From Candidatus Dojkabacteria bacterium (GTDB lineage: Bacteria > Patescibacteriota > Dojkabacteria > B142 > JAFGMG01), in the NCBI GenBank assembly GCA_016927655.1, contig JAFGMG010000001.1, positions 115,599 to 179,598 on the forward strand: a stretch of DNA of 64,000 nucleotides. Reading direction: 5' to 3'. The notes under the pieces were generated by a model, which saw only the letters and a list, made by a program, of their open reading frames with translations, was not told the DNA's origin and ran no database searches. How positions within the stretch are numbered: position 1 is the first letter of the stretch; every line of letters begins with the position of its first letter. This document shows positions 7,139-55,724 of this stretch, one piece after another. The position numbers and the translations under genes were made by a program.

Positions 7139-7211
7139 GCGCCTGTAGCTCAATGGATAGAGCAACGGTCTTCGGAACCGTAGGTTGGGGGTTCGACTCC
7201 CTTCGGGCGCA
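7139..7211 (+). tRNA. tRNA-Arg (anticodon TCG)
   Basis: Cloverleaf folded by eye: acceptor gcgcctg/cgggcgc, D-arm gctc-aatggata-gagc, anticodon arm acggt-CTTCGGA-accgt, T-loop ttcgact. 73 nt, no encoded CCA. Confidence 0.7.
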
Positions 7212-7347
7212 CATTTTATGATAAAATCGACAGTTTTCCTCCCGGATCAAATGACCAAAAGGAATTTGATCCGAAAAGGAGAAGACCACGGAAGCTAAAA
7301 TAAATGAGTTTACGAATTTATGTAAGCTGAAGTGCGTCTTCGACGCA

Positions 7348-7419
7348 GGGTTCGTAGCTCAATGGTAGAGCAACCGGCTCTTAACCGGTAGGTTGTGGGT
7401 TCGAGTCCCACCGGACTCA
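7348..7419 (+). tRNA. tRNA-Lys (anticodon CTT)
   Basis: Acceptor gggttcg/cggactc, D-arm gctc-aatggta-gagc, anticodon arm accgg-CTCTTAA-ccggt, T-arm gtggg-ttcgagt-cccac. 72 nt. Confidence 0.7.
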
Positions 7420-7435
7420 CGTTTTTTAACTGGGA

Positions 7436-8290
7436 TCAAACTACCTCCGTCTGTATTTGTTCTTGAACAAATTGCAAAGGCGTTTCCTTTTCGATTATTC
7501 TGACAAATTTTGAATCTTTTGAATGAGAAAGAAGATCCTGTAGCAGCTCTTTCCGTTTGATAAACGCTTCTATTTTTCCTTCTTTATACAAAGCCTTGTA
7601 GCTGTCATCCATTACCTCTACAATCGTAACCGCATTTGCATTGTGTCTTTCTACACCGGTTGCAATCACTAAAGAGTACGCATCAGGATCGGTAAATCTA
7701 TCATTGGCAAGAATTATAGAGGCCAGAGCTTCACTTGCATTGGCTTCAACAAATGTTTCTTTATCTATTGGGTTTGCGTATATGAAGTCAACTTCCTTTG
7801 GGAACGGGTTAAAATCCGTATCATTTGAGATCAGTACAATTTTCAGATGTTTCCCAAAATGCTCTCTTAATAATTTAACCACTCCTGCTGTCAGTGATGT
7901 ATAGCCGTAAATTACTACATGGTTGCTGTAGCCGATTCGAATTATTCCCTTTTCTCTTCGATCATATGTAATTCTGATTAGATCTGCGACTTCTGAAATA
8001 ACAATAGCCAGCAGAACCAACCCGGAAGCTATAACCAGAGCACCAAGAATTTTTCCTTCTACTGTGACTGGATACACATCTCCATATCCAAGTCCGGAAA
8101 TTGTCACAATCCACCACCAGAACATCTCTCCAAACGAATCGAACTGGATATTGACATCTCTTTCAACAGCAAAAACAATAAAGGTTATAGACAAAGAAAT
8201 TACGACTGTTATAGATATCCAGGCGAAAGAGTGTTTGATTCTATCTGTAATCTGCCTATTGAAACTGACCTTTTTCATAATTTCATTCAT
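7436..8290 (-). CDS. Potassium channel (2-TM pore with GYGD filter) fused to cytoplasmic RCK/TrkA-like domain
   Basis: TISGLGYGDVYPVT selectivity-filter motif. Two TM helices flank the pore helix. C-terminal Rossmann-like domain. Confidence 0.75.
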   Translation of the reverse strand: MNEIMKKVSFNRQITDRIKHSFAWISITVVISLSITFIVFAVERDVNIQFDSFGEMFWWWIVTISGLGYGDVYPVTVEGKILGALVIASGLVLLAIVISEVADLIRITYDRREKGIIRIGYSNHVVIYGYTSLTAGVVKLLREHFGKHLKIVLISNDTDFNPFPKEVDFIYANPIDKETFVEANASEALASIILANDRFTDPDAYSLVIATGVERHNANAVTIVEVMDDSYKALYKEGKIEAFIKRKELLQDLLSHSKDSKFVRIIEKETPLQFVQEQIQTEVV

Positions 8291-8401
8291 GAGAATACTT
8301 ACTAATAGATGAAAGCAGTATAGCTAAAAGATGAGGGAAAGTTAAGAAGAGAACAAATCTCAATGAGATATAGAATGCCTATTTACGAATAGATAGCTAT
8401 A

Positions 8402-8653
8402 GTGGTAGAATCGAGAAATTTTTATCACAGAATAATGAGTATACAACCTGGACCTGAATGCTCAGCAGTTGGGTGTCCTTTCGAGGGAAATTGTATACTT
8501 GACCCCAAGGTACCAGCACAAATTATTGCGGACATCGCCCGGGAAAATGGGATGCAGGGACAACTTATTAGATGCCCTAGATCTCCGAACTATGATCTCG
8601 AGGGAACCTTAGAAGAAATACGGACCCAAGAAAATGCTCAACAACCAGAATAA
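8402..8653 (+). CDS. Hypothetical small protein (Cys-containing, slightly higher GC)
   Basis: ORF only; no recognisable family. Start may be the internal Met at about 8435. Located between the K+ channel and tRNA-Leu. Confidence 0.25.
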   Translation: MVESRNFYHRIMSIQPGPECSAVGCPFEGNCILDPKVPAQIIADIARENGMQGQLIRCPRSPNYDLEGTLEEIRTQENAQQPE

Positions 8654-8771
8654 ATTACTTGGCAAATTTATTGTTTTGGGTACTGATCCACAACTACTAT
8701 AATAATCTTCTAATTCTAGCTTCTCAGCTAAATGATGTAAATGGTATAATTCTGCTGCTGTTTAACAATAT

Positions 8772-8859
8772 GCAGACGTGGTGGAATTGGTAGACACGCT
8801 ACCTTGAGGTGGTAGTGCCCATAATTACGGGTGTGGAGGTTCAAATCCTCTCGTCTGCA
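8772..8859 (+). tRNA. tRNA-Leu (anticodon GAG), long variable arm
   Basis: Acceptor gcagacg/cgtctgc, anticodon arm ctacc-TTGAGGT-ggtag, long variable arm tgcccataattacgggtg, T-loop ttcaaat. 88 nt. Confidence 0.7.
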
Positions 8860-8890
8860 CTTAAAAGATTAGCAGAAATCCAAAATTTTC

Positions 8891-8899
8891 TGATATAAT
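8891..8899 (+). promoter_or_regulatory. Extended -10 promoter-like element (TGaTATAAT) upstream of the tRNA fragment / GIY-YIG gene
   Basis: tgatataat at 8891-8899, with a weak -35-like ttagca at 8869-8874 (19-nt spacer). Sits 14 nt upstream of the tRNA-like fragment. Confidence 0.35.
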
Positions 8900-8912
8900 C
8901 TTTATGTCCTTT

Positions 8913-8968
8913 GGGGTTGTAGCTCAATTGGTTAGAGCATCCCGGTCTTACCGGGAGGGTCGCGAGTT
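8913..8968 (+). pseudogene. Truncated tRNA gene copy (5' acceptor, D-arm, Lys-CTT-type anticodon arm, T-stem 5' strand) interrupted in the T-loop
   Basis: The first 27 nt (ggggttgtagctcaattggttagagca) are identical to intact tRNA-Asp at 9230. The anticodon arm tcccg-GTCTTAC-cggga carries a Lys(CTT) anticodon. Sequence follows the tRNA through gcgag-tt, then diverges (ttagaattggcac-ATG), so there is no 3' acceptor strand. Confidence 0.55.
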
Positions 8969-8981
8969 TTAGAATTGGCAC

Positions 8982-9239
8982 ATGTTTGCAGTTTATATAC
9001 TAAAAAGTGAAAAATTTGACCGATATTATATTGGGAGTACAGGAAATATCAAAGATCGTCTGAGAAGGCATAACGAAGGGAGAGAAAAATATACAAAGAA
9101 ATATGCACCTTGGGAACTAAAATATAAAAAATATTTTAATACAAGATCAGAAGCAGTACGATTTGAGAATCATATAAAGGAACAGAAGGATAGAAGTTAC
9201 ATTGAAAACTTAATCTTAGAAGAGAAAGCGGGGTTGTAG
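8982..9239 (+). CDS. Small GIY-YIG nuclease-family protein (YhbQ/UPF0213-like, 85 aa)
   Basis: N-terminal VYILKSEKFDRYYIGSTGNIKDRLRRHNEG = GIY-(x10)-YIG motif with conserved Arg and His/Asn. The stop codon TAG (9237-9239) lies inside tRNA-Asp. Confidence 0.8.
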   Translation: MFAVYILKSEKFDRYYIGSTGNIKDRLRRHNEGREKYTKKYAPWELKYKKYFNTRSEAVRFENHIKEQKDRSYIENLILEEKAGL

Positions 9240-9303
9240 CTCAATTGGTTAGAGCACTCGCCTGTCACGCGAGAGGTCGCGAGTTCGAATCTCGTCAGCC
9301 CCG
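9230..9303 (+). tRNA. tRNA-Asp (anticodon GTC)
   Basis: Acceptor ggggttg/cagcccc (one G-U pair), D-arm gctc-aattggtta-gagc, anticodon arm ctcgc-CTGTCAC-gcgag, T-arm gcgag-ttcgaat-ctcgt, discriminator G. 74 nt. Confidence 0.8.
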
Positions 9304-9560: not shown

Positions 9561-9623
9561 GCCCGAATGGGTGCCCCGCCACTTATTATCGACTCCCATA
9601 TTCCTTCCTGCTAAAATACCCAC

Positions 9624-10346
9624 ATGGAACTTAAAATCTTTAGTCTAAATTGCTGGCTCTTGCCGCCGCCCTTTTCGATAAACAACCAAAAAAGACTGAA
9701 CAATATTGTTTCAACAATCAAAGTATGCCGCCCGGATATAATCGCTTTACAAGAAATCTGGCTTAATAGATATATCAAAGAAATTGAAGAGCGATTGCAG
9801 GGATATTCCTTTGTAAAATCCAATTCAAGTATTATTAATAAAAGCGGCCTTCTAACAGGTATTAGAAAAGAAGCTGCAGATTTCGAAGTTAATTATTTCC
9901 CGCAGCATTCAGAATATGGACTGTTTGAGAAGATAGCCCGCAAAGGCTATCATACAATCAAATTAAATGAAGATCTATCATTTATCAATACCCATCTATA
10001 CTGCTCAAGAGCTATGACCGGCGAACTTATAAAAAAGACTCAATTCAAATTCCTCCAAAAATTATTCCCCACTCAAAAAGTAATCCTTGGAGGAGATTTA
10101 AATATTAATGAAAAATTACTTGCGAAATTAAATACAAGATTTGTATATGACAAATCACAAGGATCGACAGTTTCTTATACAAACGCTCTAACTAGAGCGA
10201 GATTCAATAGATTTGGCGTTCCAGATCATAAAGTTGATTATATTCTCATCTCAAAGGATACCGGCGCATCAATAACAACCAGGTATATCAAAAACCCAAT
10301 CGTATCAGATCATTACATGCTGCTATCAGATGTTAAAATAACATAA
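9624..10346 (+). CDS. Endonuclease/exonuclease/phosphatase (EEP) family protein
   Basis: N-terminal IFSLNCW...DIIALQEIW is the conserved EEP fold start (Mg-binding Asn/Glu). C-terminal SDHY motif. Stop overlaps the start of the next gene (taATGg). Confidence 0.6.
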   Translation: MELKIFSLNCWLLPPPFSINNQKRLNNIVSTIKVCRPDIIALQEIWLNRYIKEIEERLQGYSFVKSNSSIINKSGLLTGIRKEAADFEVNYFPQHSEYGLFEKIARKGYHTIKLNEDLSFINTHLYCSRAMTGELIKKTQFKFLQKLFPTQKVILGGDLNINEKLLAKLNTRFVYDKSQGSTVSYTNALTRARFNRFGVPDHKVDYILISKDTGASITTRYIKNPIVSDHYMLLSDVKIT

Positions 10347-11851
10347 TGGAATTCATGAAACGTCACAAAGAAACAATTACAACAGGTCTTATCATCCTTT
10401 TTGGAGCAGGACTTCGACTGGTCAATATCAGTGCACCGGATTTCTGGCGGGACGAGGCCTTTACCCTTCGTGCTGCAACTATGCAGTTTGGAGATATGTG
10501 GAGCTCACTTACGGCTGATACAGCTCCGCCGCTCTTTACTCTAATTTTGCATTACTGGTTGAAAATTGTCCCGTTAACAGAGTTATCGGCCAGAATTCCG
10601 TCATTTATTTTTGGAGTGGCAACGATCTATTTTGCATACCTGCTTGCCAAACAGCTTTTCCCATATAACAGGAAATACATTTATCTAACTGTAATATTAA
10701 CCGCACTCAATCCAGTATTGATTTTCTATTCACAGGAAGCACGCGCATATTCACTACTCTCACTCCTTGCAACCATTTCACTCTATTTGGTTTTCAAAAT
10801 TACCACACAACCTAAAACCAAAACTTTTGTCTGGGTATTATTAAGTATCATAACAATTCTAGGCCTTTACACTCACAACCTGTTTATTTTCATTGCTTTT
10901 GTAAATGGCTTGATAATTTTCGCTTCAAGAGCAAACCTTAAAGATCTCAAACAGACTGCTAAAAGAAATATTCCATTGGCTTTAGCGTATCTTGCAGTAG
11001 GCATAGTATTTCTGCCGTGGTTTCTCGTATTTCTCGAGCAGTCCAAAACTGTCTCACAAGGCGGATTCTGGCTGACCCTTGATCCGGTCAATGACCCAGC
11101 CAAGCTTTTGACTGACACATTCTCAGGCGAGCAGATTTGGATGGAGAGCGAACTATTTCGTAGTGTTCTAAAATATTTCTCAGACATTCTTGCAGGACTA
11201 TTTACAGCAGGCAGTTTTATTATAATTTATAAACAACGACAGAATGATAAATTCAACCAAAAACTCGCGGCATTATTGTTTTGGATATTTGCAAATTTTT
11301 TGATAGTTTATCTCTACAGCTTCAAAACTTCATTTATCTATATCAGATATCTTATTTATCTGATTGTTCCCGCACTCATAATTACAACCATACCTCTTCT
11401 AAATCTCAACCTCAATAAAACTCTGAAATACATTTTCACCGCATTCGTAATTGGAAGTCTTTCCATTTTTTCAGTAATTACACTTAGGAACATTCCAAAT
11501 TCAAAGGCTCCAATGAAAGACCTGATAGCCCAAGTTGAGGTATTAAACAGCGAAGAGAGTTTAATATTGCATTCTCACGCATATACAAATCACGGCTTTA
11601 AGATTTACTCGAATTTGCGAAGTCAGATTTATAACCCGCAAGATAATCTGCCTTATTATGAAGGCCTGGCCGTATTGAGTGAAGATGATTATTTTAGACA
11701 AACTGCGGTGGCTGGCTACAAACAAGTCTTTGTAATCTATCTTTGGGATGAGGATCAGGATTTAGCCGGCGAACTTGAGAAAAATTACAAAAAGTCAGAT
11801 AATTACGACTATTCTGGAAATCTGCATTTAGATATTTGGACATTAAAATAA
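10346..11851 (+). CDS. GT39/GT83-like membrane glycosyltransferase (PMT/ArnT-type polyprenyl-phosphate-sugar:acceptor transferase)
   Basis: About 12 predicted TM helices. Conserved first-loop RDEAFTLRAA (DE motif of PMT_2/ArnT families). About 500 aa. Confidence 0.6.
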   Translation: MEFMKRHKETITTGLIILFGAGLRLVNISAPDFWRDEAFTLRAATMQFGDMWSSLTADTAPPLFTLILHYWLKIVPLTELSARIPSFIFGVATIYFAYLLAKQLFPYNRKYIYLTVILTALNPVLIFYSQEARAYSLLSLLATISLYLVFKITTQPKTKTFVWVLLSIITILGLYTHNLFIFIAFVNGLIIFASRANLKDLKQTAKRNIPLALAYLAVGIVFLPWFLVFLEQSKTVSQGGFWLTLDPVNDPAKLLTDTFSGEQIWMESELFRSVLKYFSDILAGLFTAGSFIIIYKQRQNDKFNQKLAALLFWIFANFLIVYLYSFKTSFIYIRYLIYLIVPALIITTIPLLNLNLNKTLKYIFTAFVIGSLSIFSVITLRNIPNSKAPMKDLIAQVEVLNSEESLILHSHAYTNHGFKIYSNLRSQIYNPQDNLPYYEGLAVLSEDDYFRQTAVAGYKQVFVIYLWDEDQDLAGELEKNYKKSDNYDYSGNLHLDIWTLK

Positions 11852-11855
11852 CTTC

Positions 11856-12587
11856 ATGAAAAAAACAACTCTAGTCATTCCAACTTTCAACGAAAAAGAA
11901 AATATCGGACCCCTTCTAGAAAGAATTCAAAAAGTCTCGAATGAGAGTCTCAAAGATTTAACTGAACTGAGCATACTTTTCGTCGACGACAGTTCTCCTG
12001 ATGGTACTCAGGATGAAATCCGCCGGGAAGCAGAAAAATACACAAGAGATTTTGAAATTGATATTTTATCTCGAGAAGAAAAAACCGGACTTGGGACCGC
12101 CTATATAGCCGGCTTCAAAAAAGCTATTGCGAGAGGCGCAGATTATATCGTTCAAATGGATGGCGACTTATCTCATGAGCCAGAAGTGGTATCTGAAATG
12201 ATCAAAGCCCTCAAGACGCATGATTTTGTAATAGGTTCAAGATACATCAAAGGCGGTCAGCTTCCAAAATGGAGCTTTGTTAGAAAGATGATCAGCAAAG
12301 GCGGAAATCTGTATTCAAGAATTATCCTTGGGTTTAATGTGCGGGACTATACGGGCGGGTTTAACGGTTATCAAAGAAAGGTTTTAGAGACAATCAAGCT
12401 GGATGAAATAAAGAGCAATGGCTATGCTTTTCAAATTGAAATGAAGTACCGGGCAAAAAAAGCAGGATTTAAATTCCTGGAAATTCCAATTCACTTTAGA
12501 GACCGGACACACGGGAGCTCAAAGTTCTCAAGGAATATTTTTATCGAAGCACTTATAAATACTCTGCGACTGAAATTTACAATTTGA
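11856..12587 (+). CDS. GT2 polyprenol-phosphate glycosyltransferase (Dpm1/GtrB-like dolichol-phosphate mannose synthase type)
   Basis: LVIPTFNEKENI, VDDSSPDGT and DGDLSHEPE motifs characteristic of Dpm1-like GT2 enzymes. About 240 aa soluble form. Confidence 0.8.
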   Translation: MKKTTLVIPTFNEKENIGPLLERIQKVSNESLKDLTELSILFVDDSSPDGTQDEIRREAEKYTRDFEIDILSREEKTGLGTAYIAGFKKAIARGADYIVQMDGDLSHEPEVVSEMIKALKTHDFVIGSRYIKGGQLPKWSFVRKMISKGGNLYSRIILGFNVRDYTGGFNGYQRKVLETIKLDEIKSNGYAFQIEMKYRAKKAGFKFLEIPIHFRDRTHGSSKFSRNIFIEALINTLRLKFTI

Positions 12588-48429: not shown

Positions 48430-49536
48430 CTATTTTTTCTTTCCCATAGACATGACTGCAAGGCCAACAACTCCGCCTACAAGCATGACACTGCATAGTA
48501 TCACTAGCCACCAGTAAGTCACGAGCAAAGTGATAAGTGCTACTATTATTGCAGAAACGACGCCAAAAACAATTGTCGTTACACATCCGATGATTTTATT
48601 CAACCCTGGTACAAGCTTTGTAAGTACTAGAACTGGCGCAACCAGCGCGCTGAAGCCTAGAGTCAGAAGCAGCCATGCGACGAATCTCAAACCCCATCTC
48701 ATAGCACTTTCTTCTCCTTGAAGCTTTGAGACTAATTCCGTATCGGATAAATTTGAAATCATAAATACATCTCCCCCGTCGATTTTCTTGTTGTGAATAT
48801 TACCAATTACTATCAAATCATCACTTGCTGGCACATAACTGACGATCATTTTTGTATCACCTACTTGTGCTGAAGGATTTTCGTAGATCTGCGGCGCACC
48901 AGCTCCTGGAATTACTACATCGGTAATAATTTCAGTCTGCATATCGAAACGCTTCCCAATATCAGTTGTATCAAGCGCAATGTCTCCCAGACTGAATTCT
49001 CCAAAGGTTTGTGTAGTTTCCTTTGTAACCCATTCTTCATATATATCAGTTTTTTCTGAAGTCTGTTCGATCTGATCGCCATTTTCATCAGTTACAGTTT
49101 CGGTACTCTCTGAAGTCTGCTTGACTTGCTCATACATCTGATATTCAACTTCCAGATAAAGCGCTTCTTTATCGAAAATGTATGGAGTTTGCACACCATA
49201 AGCATCTTTAACAATATATTCCAGGCTGGCCTGTGAAGATAAAACTGCACTTCCTTCAACTTTTACCAGTTCGTCTTTATCCCCTGCCTCCTCAATGCTG
49301 AGCAAGTCAAGTTTTTCGATAGTTTTCGAATCATCTGAAACAGCTACAACACCGGCAATAATTATCCCGAATCCGATAACCAGCATCACACAGCCTCCAA
49401 CCATGCCGGTTATGCTTTTTGATAAATCTCCAAAGAACCCGCCGATTTTGCCAAGTGGTCCCGCCTTTCTCACGACTTTTGAAGAAACAATCCTTTCTGA
49501 ACTTGCACGCAGATCGTGGCCAGCCATATTTTTCAA
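48430..49536 (-). CDS. Membrane protein, TMEM43/DUF1625-like topology
   Basis: One N-terminal TM, about 230-aa extracytoplasmic Glu/Thr-rich domain, three C-terminal TM helices. No family motif recognised with certainty. Confidence 0.3.
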   Translation of the reverse strand: MKNMAGHDLRASSERIVSSKVVRKAGPLGKIGGFFGDLSKSITGMVGGCVMLVIGFGIIIAGVVAVSDDSKTIEKLDLLSIEEAGDKDELVKVEGSAVLSSQASLEYIVKDAYGVQTPYIFDKEALYLEVEYQMYEQVKQTSESTETVTDENGDQIEQTSEKTDIYEEWVTKETTQTFGEFSLGDIALDTTDIGKRFDMQTEIITDVVIPGAGAPQIYENPSAQVGDTKMIVSYVPASDDLIVIGNIHNKKIDGGDVFMISNLSDTELVSKLQGEESAMRWGLRFVAWLLLTLGFSALVAPVLVLTKLVPGLNKIIGCVTTIVFGVVSAIIVALITLLVTYWWLVILCSVMLVGGVVGLAVMSMGKKK

Positions 49537-50918: not shown

Positions 50919-52342
50919 GAAGTATTCTGCATAAAAATAAACTGTAACAGGAAAATCTCAGTAAAGACATATAATTGCAGCATCGAAACAAATATTAGTA
51001 CTCCAAATGCTCCGGCGAACTGATCCACTACAAAAAGATTTATAACCGATGCAAAGAAAACAACAACAAGTGCTAAAAAGTGTGCGTTTCTGTAATATTC
51101 CCGGACCTCCTGAATCTTCTCCATAAGAACTTTCATTTTACCGCTGGTATCAAGCCTTCTTATAAATATAAGGTTTAGCAGCAATATAAATAAGACCCCA
51201 AGAAGAATTCCTGAGACCAGTGAGAGTGAAAGCTTGGTCCCAAAAAGTTTCATCAAAGCAATTCCCCAGATCAAGTTGACCAGCAAATATAACACTTGAT
51301 AAATACCAAGCCAGTTGTATCTGTAAATCAAAATTATCGAAAGGAACCCAAACATTAAAATAAGCGCAAGTTTAATATTATTCATATAGTCAGTTCCAAG
51401 TATAGGCTCAACTTCTTCTACCGCCTGGAGATTAAACTGGCTGTCCAGTTCTCCGGTTCGGAAAACTGCTCCTACTGCATCATTAATTGCAAAATTGTCT
51501 CCTACAAGGGAAGACATATACATAACCGGCTTGGAATCTTCTTTATCAGTATTTTCAAGCTGATATGAGCGCGTTGCTATCGGCTGACCGTCAATTACAA
51601 GCATTGTTCCTCTATAAGTCTCTGTCTGGGTCGCAATTAGTATTGGTAGCAATGCATCTGATGAGAATGTCATCTTGAACCCATATCCCCCGGCTTTTTG
51701 GCTGTAAAGAGACGACAGATCGACAATTTGATCTTTATTCAACTCAACTGCGATCATTCCAGTGAAAAAGCTAAACGAATCTTCTTCGGTTGCTGTTTCC
51801 GGATCATAGGCAGGGTCCTGGCTCCAAAGCTCTATCACACCCTGGCTTGCTAGCAGCTGCAATATCTGTTCATCATCTTCAAGATTTTTTGAGATGGTCA
51901 GTTCCAGCTGGAGAATGCTTTCATTTTCTAGAGACCATCTCAGTTCAAAGTCCTGATAGCCATAGTGCTCTAGCCTCGCGCCGAATTTCTCTGCGTTTGA
52001 TTTAGCTTTTGCCTGATAATCTATTTGAATGGCCGGCTCTTCCTCATTATTTTGAGAATCTGCTGCAGCACCTTCGATATCTGCCTCAGGACTTGCCTCA
52101 GGGAGAACTTCGCCAATTGATAAATCTGCGGAAAATATGTACTTCTTCCCGCCATGAAGTTCTAGTGAATCTCCGAATTGCAATTCTCCTTTGTATTTAT
52201 CATTGGTGATTGTGGCAAGATTTAGACCGTTCCAATCGATTGTCTGGCCCAGAAGTTTGATATTTGAAGCCGGCCAGGCAAATACTGCGATGATTGCTGT
52301 CAAAATTATAAATAGTATTGCCAATGTGTTTCGTATTCGCAT
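50897..52342 (-). CDS. secD: Probable protein-export membrane protein SecD (divergent)
   Basis: N-terminal TM, about 300-aa periplasmic domain, six C-terminal TM helices with LSLSLVSGILLGV...NLIFIRRL (cf. SecD lTLpGIAGiiLtiG...NVLIfERirEe). Gene order secD-secF. Confidence 0.45.
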   Translation of the reverse strand: MRIRNTLAILFIILTAIIAVFAWPASNIKLLGQTIDWNGLNLATITNDKYKGELQFGDSLELHGGKKYIFSADLSIGEVLPEASPEADIEGAAADSQNNEEEPAIQIDYQAKAKSNAEKFGARLEHYGYQDFELRWSLENESILQLELTISKNLEDDEQILQLLASQGVIELWSQDPAYDPETATEEDSFSFFTGMIAVELNKDQIVDLSSLYSQKAGGYGFKMTFSSDALLPILIATQTETYRGTMLVIDGQPIATRSYQLENTDKEDSKPVMYMSSLVGDNFAINDAVGAVFRTGELDSQFNLQAVEEVEPILGTDYMNNIKLALILMFGFLSIILIYRYNWLGIYQVLYLLVNLIWGIALMKLFGTKLSLSLVSGILLGVLFILLLNLIFIRRLDTSGKMKVLMEKIQEVREYYRNAHFLALVVVFFASVINLFVVDQFAGAFGVLIFVSMLQLYVFTEIFLLQFIFMQNTSWKKERK

Positions 52343-52380
52343 AAATGGATTTTAGCAGAAAGTGTGCAGGGGTGGAATGC

Positions 52381-52409
52381 TTGACAGGGTTTTTTGTATA
52401 TATTAGAAT
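52381..52409 (+). promoter_or_regulatory. Sigma70-type promoter (TTGACA-17-TAGAAT)
   Basis: ttgaca at 52381-52386, 17-nt spacer, tagaat at 52404-52409. Lies in the 255-bp gap between divergent genes. Confidence 0.5.
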
Positions 52410-52573
52410 GCGGTCACGCATATGAGGCGGATATATAGATTATATAAAGGATAATATGCAAAGCAATTTATTTATGCGCAATCTCTTTATTGTGATTATC
52501 AGGGCAGGACTCTGGGATATCGCAAGCATGGAGGCATAAATAAATTAGAAAAAAATCTAAATTATTAAATCAG

Positions 52574-52599
52574 ACCTCCAGAAACGGAGGTTTTTTATT
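52574..52599 (+). terminator. Intrinsic terminator-like hairpin + U-tract at end of an about 190-nt leader, immediately before ORF 52598
   Basis: acctcc-agaaac-ggaggt followed by tttttatt. It is oriented for the + strand only, since the T-run is 3' of the hairpin on +. Confidence 0.5.
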
Positions 52600-52960
52600 G
52601 TGGATGAAAAGCCGGATCAATCCAAATTATAGAGAATGTGAATATTGTGCCAGTCCTATGGCCCTTGTCGGAGATCAAGATCATCACGGGGTTACTGACA
52701 CATACGAATGCCATTGCAACCAATGCCGATATGCAATCGATGTAGCAACATGGGAGCCCTGGGTGCTCCCGACAGAAGAGAAACTGAAAGAAATGAATGT
52801 TTTTGATAGTGTTGTTGAGAAAGGACTGCCTTACACGCTTGGCAGCAATCCTGAATTTTATAATCGTGCAAAAAACACCCATCGCGGACTGCCGCCAGTA
52901 AAGCAAGAACCACTAGAGAAAATAACTGAATCTCATAACCCAGAACATCTTGCAATATAA
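52598..52960 (+). CDS. Hypothetical Cys-rich (zinc-ribbon-like) small protein
   Basis: CEYC...(25)...CHCNQC tetracysteine. Listed start is TTG; the ATG at 52604 is more plausible. No family recognised. Confidence 0.35.
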   Translation: MWMKSRINPNYRECEYCASPMALVGDQDHHGVTDTYECHCNQCRYAIDVATWEPWVLPTEEKLKEMNVFDSVVEKGLPYTLGSNPEFYNRAKNTHRGLPPVKQEPLEKITESHNPEHLAI

Positions 52961-52984
52961 ATTATTTATTGAAAATTTTCGATT

Positions 52985-53401
52985 ATGACAATATATGTTG
53001 TAGAAAACACAGAAGAACGCAGAGCCTTAGCTGAGGCTTGTCCAATAAATAAAGAACCTGAATATCGTCCAACCGTCTATCCATGCATTCCCCTAAGCAA
53101 ATATACCGGGATGCTTGGACTTATCAGGGGATCAAGCAATATGGAAAGCCCGAAACAAGCAAGAAAACTAGGGAAGTCAGAAGCTTTAAGAATTTGCGGG
53201 GAATGCCCATTTAATATAGAAAACCCTGATGCAACGCCAGTTAAAGTAATTTCTGGATATGGCGTCCGCTGTCAAGGTCCTCAAGTTACTACTACTCAAG
53301 CAATGACTCCAAATGGGATGAAAATACTTCCCTTTATAATTCCACAGCCGACAGAATTAGAGGAAATACCTGATGAAGAAATTTTCGCCCCGGAGCCTTA
53401 G
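52985..53401 (+). CDS. Hypothetical small protein (Cys-containing)
   Basis: ORF with RICGECP Cys pair. GC content slightly above neighbours. No family recognised. Confidence 0.35.
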   Translation: MTIYVVENTEERRALAEACPINKEPEYRPTVYPCIPLSKYTGMLGLIRGSSNMESPKQARKLGKSEALRICGECPFNIENPDATPVKVISGYGVRCQGPQVTTTQAMTPNGMKILPFIIPQPTELEEIPDEEIFAPEP

Positions 53402-53467
53402 ACAAAATTGTATTTTTGACATTATAAGAATCTAATATATAATTACTGCGGGGTAAATATTTCAACA

Positions 53468-53707
53468 ATGAACGAACAAGATCCAGGAATTCAAAAACAA
53501 TTAGAAGCTGATGGCTTATTAGTCCAAAGACCGGATGGAAGTAGAGGGCTGGATCTGCTAGCTGCACAAGATTGTGCGGAATTACTCCTAAGACAAAATG
53601 AATATACTACTTCCGAGGCTCCTGCAGCAGAACTGTATGCGCGTGCACTTCCAGGTGAAAGACCGAAAGACCTAAAATTTGAGGAATCAACCTTTAGAGA
53701 GCCCTAG
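53468..53707 (+). CDS. Hypothetical small acidic protein
   Basis: ORF only. Ends 2 nt before the convergent DUF2207 gene. Confidence 0.3.
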   Translation: MNEQDPGIQKQLEADGLLVQRPDGSRGLDLLAAQDCAELLLRQNEYTTSEAPAAELYARALPGERPKDLKFEESTFREP

Positions 53708-53708
53708 A

Positions 53709-55724
53709 CTATCTAGCCCCGATACTCCCGCCACCACCACCGCCGCCTGAGAAACCACCACTAAACCCTCCTCCGCCAGACCAGCCGCCGCCGGAACTGC
53801 TGCCTGAACTATTTGGCATAGAGCTCATTGTGCTTGCTGAAACCCGGTTCATGTTCGAGAGAGAATTTGCAAGAAGGATTGAATTGAAAGTTCCGCTATC
53901 AGACTCGTACCAATCAGGCTTCCCATCATAAATCCCCTTAAATGCTTTTGCCCAGCTGTCCTCCACACCAAATACAATTGCATAGCTCAAGTATTTCTCG
54001 AAATTCTCCGAAGTCAAGTATTTCAAATATTTCGTACCTTCTTTTGCCAATCTGTAGCGCTCCGCCGTATGCAAAAACATCCTGAAGCCTTTTGCCTTTT
54101 CAAAGATTATCGTTCCTCTGGCAGTCTTGCTAGGCATAAAAGGCCCGACAACAAAGAATGATATCCCGGCTACAACCAGAATCATTGGCGGAATGACAGG
54201 CGGCACAACCCCCAGCATAAATAGAATCGGACCAAGGAATGCCGCCGCGAGCACAGTTAGAACAATGCCAATCACAAAGGAAAATATCCCGAGACCAATA
54301 TAAGAAAGACGCACAGTATTTGGATTATGATCAAAATACCCAAGTGTAACCATTTCCTGATAAATTGCCCGCTTGATATTTGGCAATTTCATATAGAATT
54401 TATTTTTCAATTCGTCAGTTGTAACAGTATCATCACTCTCAAAGATGTCTCCCAAAATCATCTGCTCGACATTTCCAAGATCAATAAAATTCTTCAGTTT
54501 TATAAACTCATATTTCTTCTTGGAAATTTCTCTGATTTTGACATATCCCCTATAAGCAGCATCTATCAAAGTAGAAGTTATATCGACCATATCAACCTTT
54601 TCGTCTTTTACTGAGCCTAATAAATACGGCCTTATATCCTCAGGCGGCTTGAACCACGGCACAATAGTTCCCCTGCCCCCGATATCTCTTCCTTTATTTC
54701 TCCAGCGCAAAAACACAAGAAATACTGTAAAAGGAATGAAAACGCAGGAAAGAAGGTTTAGACAGATCATACTATAAGACAAAGTCTTGGCCCATGAAGT
54801 TTGATCCAATTTGATTGACAGATCCTGTATTTTGCCTGGTGTAATCGGAACCTCTAAACTTTCAGATTCAAATCCAAGTTTGGAAAATTTAATTTCATAA
54901 TCACCCTCAGGCAGTCCTGCGATCACATCGCCGCTAGACATTTCCCTTTCAACCCCAAGATAAGAAACTGTTTGCAAAGAAGGGTCTAAAGTTAGATTGA
55001 TCTTGCCAGGCTCATCAACAGAGTCATAAGGCAGTTTCAGAAGAACAGTAAAATCCTCATAAACAGCCATGTTTTCAACAGAAAGCACTAGATTGTCAGG
55101 ATTGATCTCATAATTATAATTTCCGACGAAACCCACAACATCAAAATCGTCTTCCACAATAGCAATATCATCCGGGAAATTTATCGTTACTTCAGCTTTT
55201 TTGAAGTCTTTTGTTCTCTGCTCAGGAAGCGTATTCCAATAGAAAAGCACATAATCCTCGTCTTCAAAAAAGCCCAGTCCGCCAAATACGGTATAACTGA
55301 TCTCCCAGGTTACTTCATCACCATTAAATGTCTTCGGACCAAAAGCGTATTCGATATTTTGAGTCCTTTCAGAATATCCTGTCGTAATAAATAGATCCAG
55401 ATCACTCACAGGAACTTCAACGCCATTATATTTAGAGCCGGTGATTTGAAGTGTATCAAATCCGCCGCATTGCAAAGAAGGATCACTTTGGCAAAGCCTT
55501 ACATTTTCGTAGTCCTCAAGTGTAATCCCACGCTCAAGCACTGAGAATTCCCCAGTAAATCTATAAGTCACTTTTTCTGTGATATCCATTGTGGAATCTT
55601 GATTTACATCAATTTCCACTTCGAAATTTTCGAAAGAGTAGTCTTTGGCCTGAGCAGAAGATTTATCCAAAGCAGACCAACCAAACCCTAGAAGCAGTAT
55701 TGCAGCAAACAGAAATCTTTTCAT
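53709..55724 (-). CDS. DUF2207-family membrane protein with Gly-rich C-terminal tail
   Basis: Signal peptide, about 300-aa extracellular beta-rich domain, TM segments flanking a cytoplasmic domain. C-terminal GGGWSGGGGFSGGFSGGGGGGGS tail typical of DUF2207. Sits immediately downstream of a LemA gene. Confidence 0.7.
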   Translation of the reverse strand: MKRFLFAAILLLGFGWSALDKSSAQAKDYSFENFEVEIDVNQDSTMDITEKVTYRFTGEFSVLERGITLEDYENVRLCQSDPSLQCGGFDTLQITGSKYNGVEVPVSDLDLFITTGYSERTQNIEYAFGPKTFNGDEVTWEISYTVFGGLGFFEDEDYVLFYWNTLPEQRTKDFKKAEVTINFPDDIAIVEDDFDVVGFVGNYNYEINPDNLVLSVENMAVYEDFTVLLKLPYDSVDEPGKINLTLDPSLQTVSYLGVEREMSSGDVIAGLPEGDYEIKFSKLGFESESLEVPITPGKIQDLSIKLDQTSWAKTLSYSMICLNLLSCVFIPFTVFLVFLRWRNKGRDIGGRGTIVPWFKPPEDIRPYLLGSVKDEKVDMVDITSTLIDAAYRGYVKIREISKKKYEFIKLKNFIDLGNVEQMILGDIFESDDTVTTDELKNKFYMKLPNIKRAIYQEMVTLGYFDHNPNTVRLSYIGLGIFSFVIGIVLTVLAAAFLGPILFMLGVVPPVIPPMILVVAGISFFVVGPFMPSKTARGTIIFEKAKGFRMFLHTAERYRLAKEGTKYLKYLTSENFEKYLSYAIVFGVEDSWAKAFKGIYDGKPDWYESDSGTFNSILLANSLSNMNRVSASTMSSMPNSSGSSSGGGWSGGGGFSGGFSGGGGGGGSIGAR

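Follow-up and report, generated by a model that had tools for sequence, protein, structure and literature searches.

Which genes, if any, does a structured leader RNA control when the reading frames behind it have no recognizable relatives? The question is raised by a 1.4-kb locus (positions 52343-53708) in a 64-kb stretch, referred to here as the window, of the genome of a Candidatus Dojkabacteria (WS6) bacterium. Dojkabacteria belong to the Candidate Phyla Radiation (CPR); they are uncultured and have small genomes. The locus lies between a divergent secD-like gene and a convergent DUF2207 gene, and the original prediction had placed in it a near-consensus promoter, a structured leader of about 190 nucleotides (nt) ending in an intrinsic terminator, and three small open reading frames (ORFs), the whole being read as a riboswitch or attenuator or as an independent small RNA. 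These parts are all present, and the RNA-level reading is strengthened by our finding that promoter, fold and terminator are conserved in two more Dojkabacteria. The leader is a narrowly distributed structured leader or attenuator, conserved and folded beyond chance, which represents a known kind of element and an undescribed family. A full-text literature search returned no description of a structured regulatory RNA for Dojkabacteria, and the sole paper that mentioned both was concerned with genome-assembly methods.

A conserved leader ends at the edge of a variable gene slot

The comparison set comprised three Dojkabacteria sequences, namely the window, L002 (GCA_014728495.1) and L003 (a contig of 1.95 kb), and our conclusions on the leader rest on these three genomes and on folding in silico. 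Synteny between the window and L002 spans more than 15 kb, and the secD-like protein of the window (JW978_00970 in the NCBI naming) is 65% and 60% identical to its counterparts in the two relatives.

Promoter P1 (TTGACA-17-TAGAAT, plus strand, 52381-52409, with TTGACA at 52381-52386 and TAGAAT at 52404-52409) matches the consensus at 11 of 12 positions, and transcription is predicted to start at about 52416. The counterpart of this promoter in both L002 (9938-9910) and L003 (399-371) is TTGACA-17-TACAAT. Promoters with at least 11 of 12 matches number six in the window against 1.7 expected, and two of the six fall inside this 1.4 kb.

The leader (52415-52610) folds with a predicted energy of -50.8 kcal/mol (z = -5.1), and none of 200 shuffled sequences was as stable. 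The opposite strand reaches only -37.9 kcal/mol (z = -3.5), i.e., the transcribed strand folds better. Across the three genomes the z-scores are -5.1, -4.4 and -4.0, and all three leaders share a common architecture consisting of a long irregular hairpin (hairpin P1), a weak spacer hairpin and the terminator.

In the window, all of the following elements are on the plus strand. An A/U block, GATATATAGATTATATA (52430-52446), conserved by both alignment and folds, forms a small 5' hairpin just before the AUG of an upstream ORF of 27 codons (MQSNLFMRNLFIVIIRAGLWDIASMEA, 52456-52539). Hairpin P1 (52465-52546) is closed by a perfect outer stem of 13 base pairs (52465-52477 with 52534-52546). Within it lie an invariant core, CTCTTTATTGTGATTAYCAGG (52483-52503), which includes the CUCU that we call segment 1 (52483-52486, defined by fold and alignment), then a variable loop, the conserved block CTCTGG (52510-52515), and segment 2, ATGGAGG (52528-52534), which holds the first of two GGAGG motifs (GGAGG#1, 52530-52534). 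An A/U-rich spacer with a weak hairpin follows (52540-52567); its sequence is poorly conserved, and in an alternative fold the spacer hairpin brings GGAGG#1 and CCUCC together. The intrinsic terminator (AGACCTCC-AGAAAC-GGAGGTTT and then a T run, 52572-52597) is preceded by an A-rich tract and followed by U6, and contains segment 3 (CCUCC, 52575-52579) and segment 4 (GGAGG, here GGAGG#2, 52586-52590). The upstream ORF, the further GGAGG at 52530-52534, and a perfect promoter at 53416-53443, described below, had not been part of the original prediction.

The terminator is conserved in L002 (9744-9723) and in L003. Compact hairpin-plus-T-run sites are very few in the window; the leader terminator is among them, and it is the sole occurrence there of the pattern CCTCC-N3-9-GGAGG. 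In L003 (192-212) the CCUCC/GGAGG hairpin has an A run on one side and a U run on the other, and the opposite strand also scores as a terminator; this terminator may be bidirectional.

The blocks TTTATTGTGATTAYCAGG, CTCTGG and ATGGAGG are invariant among the window, L002 and L003. Both relatives also have the A/U-rich spacer, the CCTCC-loop-GG(A/G)GG element with its T run and an ATG 12-14 nt later, and both keep the promoter, the GATATATAGATTATATA block and the aligned ATG of a small ORF beside secD. At the DNA level the leaders are 65-74% identical, which is level with the flanking coding genes (63-75%). Two outer-stem pairs of hairpin P1 change on both sides between the window and L003 (U-A to C-G and U-A to G-C), and in L002 the inner helices are kept by way of changes in the 3' strand and a shift of register. 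The two strands of hairpin P1 are conserved unequally: 19 nt of the 5' strand, located within the upstream ORF, are invariant, whereas the 3' strand that pairs with them varies. This asymmetry suggests that the 5' strand is under a further constraint, from coding or from alternative pairings.

Conservation of the unit extends precisely as far as the first start codon of the slot, whose orphan genes are unrelated. When the window is compared with L003 by blastn, the homologous segment covers 52380-52595 and does not extend past the U run. The ATG of the first cargo gene is aligned in all three genomes, 12-14 nt past the terminator stem, and in L003 the first 60 codons contain no other ATG. Homology of the cargo among the three genomes was tested and rejected: the 1.1 kb of cargo in the window resembles neither L002 nor L003 in DNA or protein sequence, no counterpart of the L002 cargo genes occurs anywhere in the window, and the L003 slot opens with yet another unrelated protein. 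The L002 slot holds genes encoding 161, 170 and 215 amino acids (aa), spaced 6-18 nt apart, with promoter P1 as the only strong promoter, and the product of the middle gene is a CxxCxxCC domain protein (PF03692, 27.7 bits). The first L002 gene (9226-9711, minus strand) contains EDGHHRL, which bears some resemblance to the motif of DGxHR nucleases of the ParB/sulfiredoxin type, with no support from Pfam or PADLOC. So sharp a boundary between a leader with its ATG and orphan cargo offers a clean place to study the birth or replacement of orphan genes.

Further copies of the leader were sought in several ways. The pattern ATTGTGATTAYCAGG-N4-8-CTCTGG gave no usable match in genomes, metagenomes or viral contigs, and a match in a Spirochaetales coding region was rejected as chance. 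Locus searches based on secD returned no relatives from GTDB genomes or JGI metagenomes, the covariance model R1 detected no second leader copy in the window, L002 or L003, and look-ups of the exact proteins yielded no strain variants.

A proposed model for attenuation by a stalled ribosome

We propose that this clade-specific cis leader of about 185 nt is a transcription attenuator that gates the variable orphan genes by a ribosome-stall logic, a reading for and against which we find the case about evenly balanced. According to the model, the transcript from promoter P1 would fold into hairpin P1 and end at the intrinsic terminator, and the default product would therefore be a short terminated RNA. 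Four serial segments, CUCU (CCAUU in L002), AUGGAGG, CCUCC, and GGAGG followed by U5-6, could each pair with the next, such that 1:2 and 3:4 pairing would lead to termination and 2:3 pairing to read-through. The upstream ORF would cover segment 1 and stop at segment 2. A ribosome stalled in the FIVI(T/I)RxxLW core of the peptide would free segment 2 to trap segment 3, and read-through would then reach the cargo genes, which begin 12-14 nt beyond the stem and lack promoters of their own; a ribosome at the stop codon, or none at all, would result in termination. Attenuation of the trp and erm types follows such a scheme. The attenuator is probably ribosome-dependent, and we infer both that stalling is the trigger and what kind of signal is sensed.

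Several features of the three leaders are consistent with this scheme. The AUG of the upstream ORF is aligned and its frame is conserved through FIVI(T/I)RxxLW, with lengths of 27 codons in the window and 23 and 29 in the relatives; it is presumed to be translated. Relative to GGAGG#1, the stop codon of this ORF is 2 nt downstream in the window, 11 nt downstream in L003 and 1 nt upstream in L002, so that a terminating ribosome would cover segment 2. Alternative terminator and antiterminator folds, for which the original prediction had proposed a check, are present in all three sequences. When the nascent transcript is cut before segment 4, the window and L002 keep hairpin P1 intact and CCUCC free. 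When a ribosome-sized mask is placed in silico on codons ~7-18 of the upstream ORF, all three sequences form an exact pairing of CCUCC with GGAGG#1, and the masked fold, which closes over the spacer hairpin, constitutes the antiterminator. The interval from the terminator to the first cargo ATG is free of promoter-like sites in the window, L002 and L003.

GGAGG#2 pairs with CCUCC and is 12-14 nt from the ATG, a poor spacing for ribosome binding. The window alone has an extra mini-ORF of 10 codons (MRRIYRLYKG, 52422-52454, plus strand) whose stop abuts the AUG of the upstream ORF.

A number of observations weigh against attenuation: (i) In the full-length transcript the terminator fold keeps an advantage of 3-4 kcal/mol even under the mask, and read-through would thus need kinetic trapping. 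(ii) In the truncated L003 transcript the 2:3 pairing is already the minimum-energy structure without a mask. (iii) The 2:3 helix is invariant and hence has zero covariation support, and the covariation evidence as a whole is thin and anecdotal because only three sequences were found. (iv) The terminator, with its A tract, stem of 8-9 base pairs and U5-6 run, appears strong. (v) The upstream ORF does not have a substitution pattern of the coding type. Nonsynonymous and synonymous changes among differing codons number 10:0, 11:0 and 7:1, and conserved residues have identical codons in 9 of 9, 9 of 9 and 12 of 13 cases, as compared with only 37-48% in secD, DUF2207 and LemA. Identical codons together with nonsynonymous differences imply that the primary constraint is on nucleotides. 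(vi) The upstream ORF has no run or tandem repeat of regulatory codons (its core reads F-I-V-I-T/I-R) and no consistent ribosome-binding signal. (vii) Regulated genes are normally conserved along with their leader; here the cargo is unrelated across genomes, which fits an RNA that functions independently of it.

The locus represents a concrete, testable candidate in which promoter, fold, switch segments and terminator are all defined. If the attenuator model is true, ribosome-coupled control of transcription exists in these reduced episymbionts.

Alternative explanations

The conserved transcript could instead be the product of a stand-alone gene for a trans-acting small RNA, in which case the downstream ORFs would merely occupy an adjacent variable hotspot and be expressed, if at all, by leakage. 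We regard this explanation as a serious rival, though as less probable than attenuation. It would account for an RNA that is conserved next to genes that are not, for a terminator with flanking A and U tracts of a kind that is rare in the window, for constraint at the level of nucleotides rather than peptide, and for the perfect promoter that ORF3 has to itself. Action in trans by a terminated attenuator RNA also has a precedent in trpL of Sinorhizobium (PMC7298713, 10.1101/864512), and, as with trpL, the attenuator and small RNA roles can coexist (PMC7298713). A stand-alone gene would not, however, explain why the cargo ATG is aligned and at most 15 nt from the terminator in all three genomes and lacks its own promoter. 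Conservation within the RNA is lowest in the single-stranded spacer, where a seed would usually be expected, and the loop of hairpin P1 is variable. Nor is pairing with the 5' end of secD significant, with shuffled targets equal or better in 42-87% of trials.

Trans-pairing with the secD start was considered as a specific candidate and rejected on the grounds that a 13-nt complementarity occurs in the window only and that the duplex energies are no better than those of shuffled targets. The 3' arm of hairpin P1 is complementary to the secD start region at 11 of 13 positions (52338-52351 versus 52465-52478 and 52534-52546). This match is lacking in L002 and L003 and probably reflects chance in A/T-rich sequence.

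A riboswitch that senses a ligand or ion, with hairpin P1 as the aptamer, the terminator as the expression platform and a possible link to metal handling, is unlikely in our judgment. The 5' strand of the internal-loop region of hairpin P1 is invariant, the terminator/antiterminator alternative is in place, and the cargo is Cys-rich in two genomes (ORF1 and ORF2 in the window and the CxxCxxCC protein in L002), all of which such a switch would explain. On the other hand, one irregular hairpin would make a simple aptamer, its 3' strand is not conserved and is shifted in register in L002, the cargo genes share no homology, and three sequences are too few to define a binding pocket. The Rfam scan that had been suggested as a check found no matching family. 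With Rfam 15 at the gathering threshold the window gave only four tRNAs, a cluster at 7139-9303, and for 52200-53800 no family of any kind matched, known riboswitches included, even at E <= 10, the best scores being 17-21 bits against thresholds of 40-90. The sole match to a leader family, Phe_leader (E = 3.9), is a chance match of the terminator. Signal recognition particle RNA and 6S RNA were dropped as candidates, having no Rfam match and a different architecture.

It is very improbable that the transcript is simply the mRNA of a micro-protein of 23-29 aa such as a small toxin or membrane peptide. In favour of a peptide product, the unit has a promoter and a terminator to itself, the start codon, frame and FIVI(T/I)RxxLW core are conserved, and a positive coding score (0.106 bits per codon over 27 codons) is obtained only in the frame of the upstream ORF. 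Nearly all codon differences are nonsynonymous, though, and conserved residues keep the same codons; neither the C-terminus nor the length is conserved, ATGGAGG is read in different frames, and the 6-7 hydrophobic residues in a row are too few to form a membrane helix.

Least tenable of all, and in our view close to negligible, is the idea that the region controls the divergent secD gene at the DNA level, or that its conservation is neutral: the element is directly upstream of secD in all three genomes, but we reject this reading because secD has its own leaderless promoter, with an extended -10 (TGcTAAAAT, 52349-52357, minus strand) 6 nt before its ATG and conserved in all three genomes, and the conservation reaches 250 nt from secD, with a consensus promoter facing the opposite way and a terminator, and includes compensatory stem changes and G-U pairs specific to the plus strand. 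Two further candidates were discarded, a type III toxin-antitoxin system, for which Tandem Repeats Finder detected no repeats in the leader, and an integron or mobile cassette, for which there is no integrase within 10 kb on either side and there are no flanking or attachment-site repeats.

Orphan genes in the slot

The slot in the window contains three ORFs on the plus strand with the predicted lengths of 120, 138 and 79 aa. ORF1 (52598-52960) encodes 120 aa from a TTG at 52598 or 118 aa from an ATG at 52604, the codon that is aligned with the first ATG of the slot in both relatives. ORF2 (52985-53401; 138 aa) is annotated by NCBI as hypothetical protein JW978_00980, and ORF3 (53468-53707; 79 aa) comes to within 1 nt of the stop codon of the DUF2207 gene, which converges on it. 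The description of these ORFs as Cys-rich holds for ORF1, whose zinc-ribbon-like motif CxxC-N20-CxCxxC needs a start at 52598 or 52604, and for ORF2, with five Cys, but not for ORF3, which has one.

All three are orphans. Searches of a collection of 5.8 billion proteins returned only self matches for ORF1 and ORF2, and a full HMMER scan of 1.84 billion cluster representatives gave no real homologue of ORF3; its four weak matches (MopE, ubiquitin, TPR repeats and one Cys-rich repeat protein) were rejected as noise from repeats and low complexity. ORF1-3 matched nothing in Pfam, PHROGs, PADLOC or NCBIfam and nothing by tblastn against phage genomes, and ORF2 had no match among PDB sequences. The AlphaFold2 model of ORF1 is uninformative (predicted local distance difference test, pLDDT, 39.5).

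With a 3-periodic Markov model trained on 51 window genes, the own-frame coding scores of ORF1-3 are 0.10-0.155 bits per codon, and they are positive only in that frame. For reference, real genes have a 25th percentile of 0.138 and a 5th percentile of 0.07 bits per codon, and the 95th percentile of shadow ORFs is 0.107. On the basis of these scores ORF1-3 are plausible genes with host-like codon usage, orphans notwithstanding, and the possibility raised at the outset that they are random ORFs is unlikely.

The higher G+C content (GC) that was claimed for these ORFs amounts to a small excess, with values of 0.42-0.447 versus a gene mean of 0.395 (standard deviation 0.022, maximum 0.433). The GC of third codon positions is host-like (0.25-0.36), however, and the visible peak (0.495 at 53600-53999) is due to the Gly-rich tail of DUF2207. 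This C-terminal tail, GGGWSGGGGFSGGFSGGGGGGGSIGAR (53728-53807, minus strand), is encoded by GC-rich imperfect repeats and is kept in L002.

The proposal that the ORFs form an acquired cassette proved half right. The slot does vary between relatives, but signs of a foreign source are missing: there are no homologues, including in phages, the codons are host-like, no integrase occurs within 10 kb on either side in the gene lists of the window and L002, and there are no flanking or attC-like repeats around the slot.

ORF3 differs in having its own promoter, TTGACA-16-TATAAT (53416-53443, plus strand), 24 nt upstream, which is the sole 12/12 match in the window. No terminator follows ORF3, and transcription from 53416-53443 would thus read antisense into the convergent DUF2207-LemA genes. 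A promoter-like site with 11 of 12 matches (TTGTCA-16-TATAAT, 55093-55120, plus strand) lies antisense within the DUF2207 gene.

Genomic setting

A Shine-Dalgarno-like 4-mer is found upstream of only two of 51 window genes; the 3' end of the 16S rRNA lies outside the window. The frequency of -10-like hexamers has its maximum exactly 6 nt ahead of the start codons of window genes, and an extended -10 of the form TGnTAAAAT-N6-ATG occurs at many of them, secD included, in some cases inside the preceding gene; examples are at 52343-52357 (minus strand) and at 9600-9626, 10322-10348 and 11833-11858 (plus strand). An extended -10 exactly 6 nt from the ATG implies widespread leaderless mRNAs, presumably including that of the secD-like gene, whose -10 block forms the left border of the conserved RNA locus. 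Because the genome is nearly free of Shine-Dalgarno sequences and many of its genes are apparently leaderless, a 190-nt leader with a GGAGG/CCUCC hairpin is highly atypical here.

The slot is not the only difference in gene content between the otherwise syntenic stretches of the window and L002. A second one is a gene for a TMEM43-like membrane protein (48430-49536, minus strand), which is present in the window and missing from L002 between the GNAT and flavodoxin genes.

A more speculative extension of the attenuator model, which we consider doubtful, is that the promoter, stall-sensing leader, terminator and start codon together form a fixed expression dock into which unrelated orphan genes would be exchanged, or at which they would be born de novo, in each Dojkabacteria lineage. 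Such a dock would serve as a gene nursery or cassette slot that is gated by RNA and needs no integrase, in an otherwise leaderless, Shine-Dalgarno-free CPR genome.

Comparison with known systems

Integron-type sites resemble this locus in having one conserved promoter region and slot genes that differ from genome to genome. They differ in that here no integrase is found within 10 kb, attC-like and flanking repeats are absent, and the slot is occupied by two or three tightly packed orphans. The type III toxin-antitoxin system ToxIN likewise consists of a promoter, a structured RNA, a terminator and an ORF immediately after it, but the present leader lacks tandem RNA repeats (about 34-36 nt in ToxIN) and the downstream proteins have no match among defence or toxin families and bear no relation to one another across genomes. 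Riboswitches with a terminator platform share with the leader a conserved structured 5' region and mutually exclusive terminator and antiterminator folds; unlike them, it matches no known aptamer, has a single hairpin and lies in an incoherent gene context.

Antibiotic- or stall-responsive leaders include the erm and cat types of translation attenuation and ribo-regulators, found by Term-seq, that combine an upstream ORF with a terminator (PMC5118997, PMC6310831, PMC5418344). In such systems, as here, a hydrophobic leader peptide is followed by a GGAGG-CCUCC hairpin just before the regulated start, and stalling would open the hairpin. The core FIVI may resemble the stalling motif of ErmCL, IFVI. 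In contrast to the erm and cat systems, the cargo includes no resistance gene (rRNA methyltransferase, acetyltransferase or ABC-F), there being no Pfam or NCBIfam match above threshold, and GGAGG#2, at 12-14 nt from the ATG, is too far away for a good Shine-Dalgarno site.

The attenuators of trp, his, ilv and phe operons differ from the leader in three respects: the leader has no run of codons for a single amino acid, its cargo is non-biosynthetic and not conserved, and its host is a CPR bacterium nearly without Shine-Dalgarno sequences. In common with them it has a promoter, a short ORF across segment 1 with a stop at segment 2, the serial 1:2, 2:3 and 3:4 pairings, a U-run terminator before the structural genes, and a short RNA as the predicted default product.

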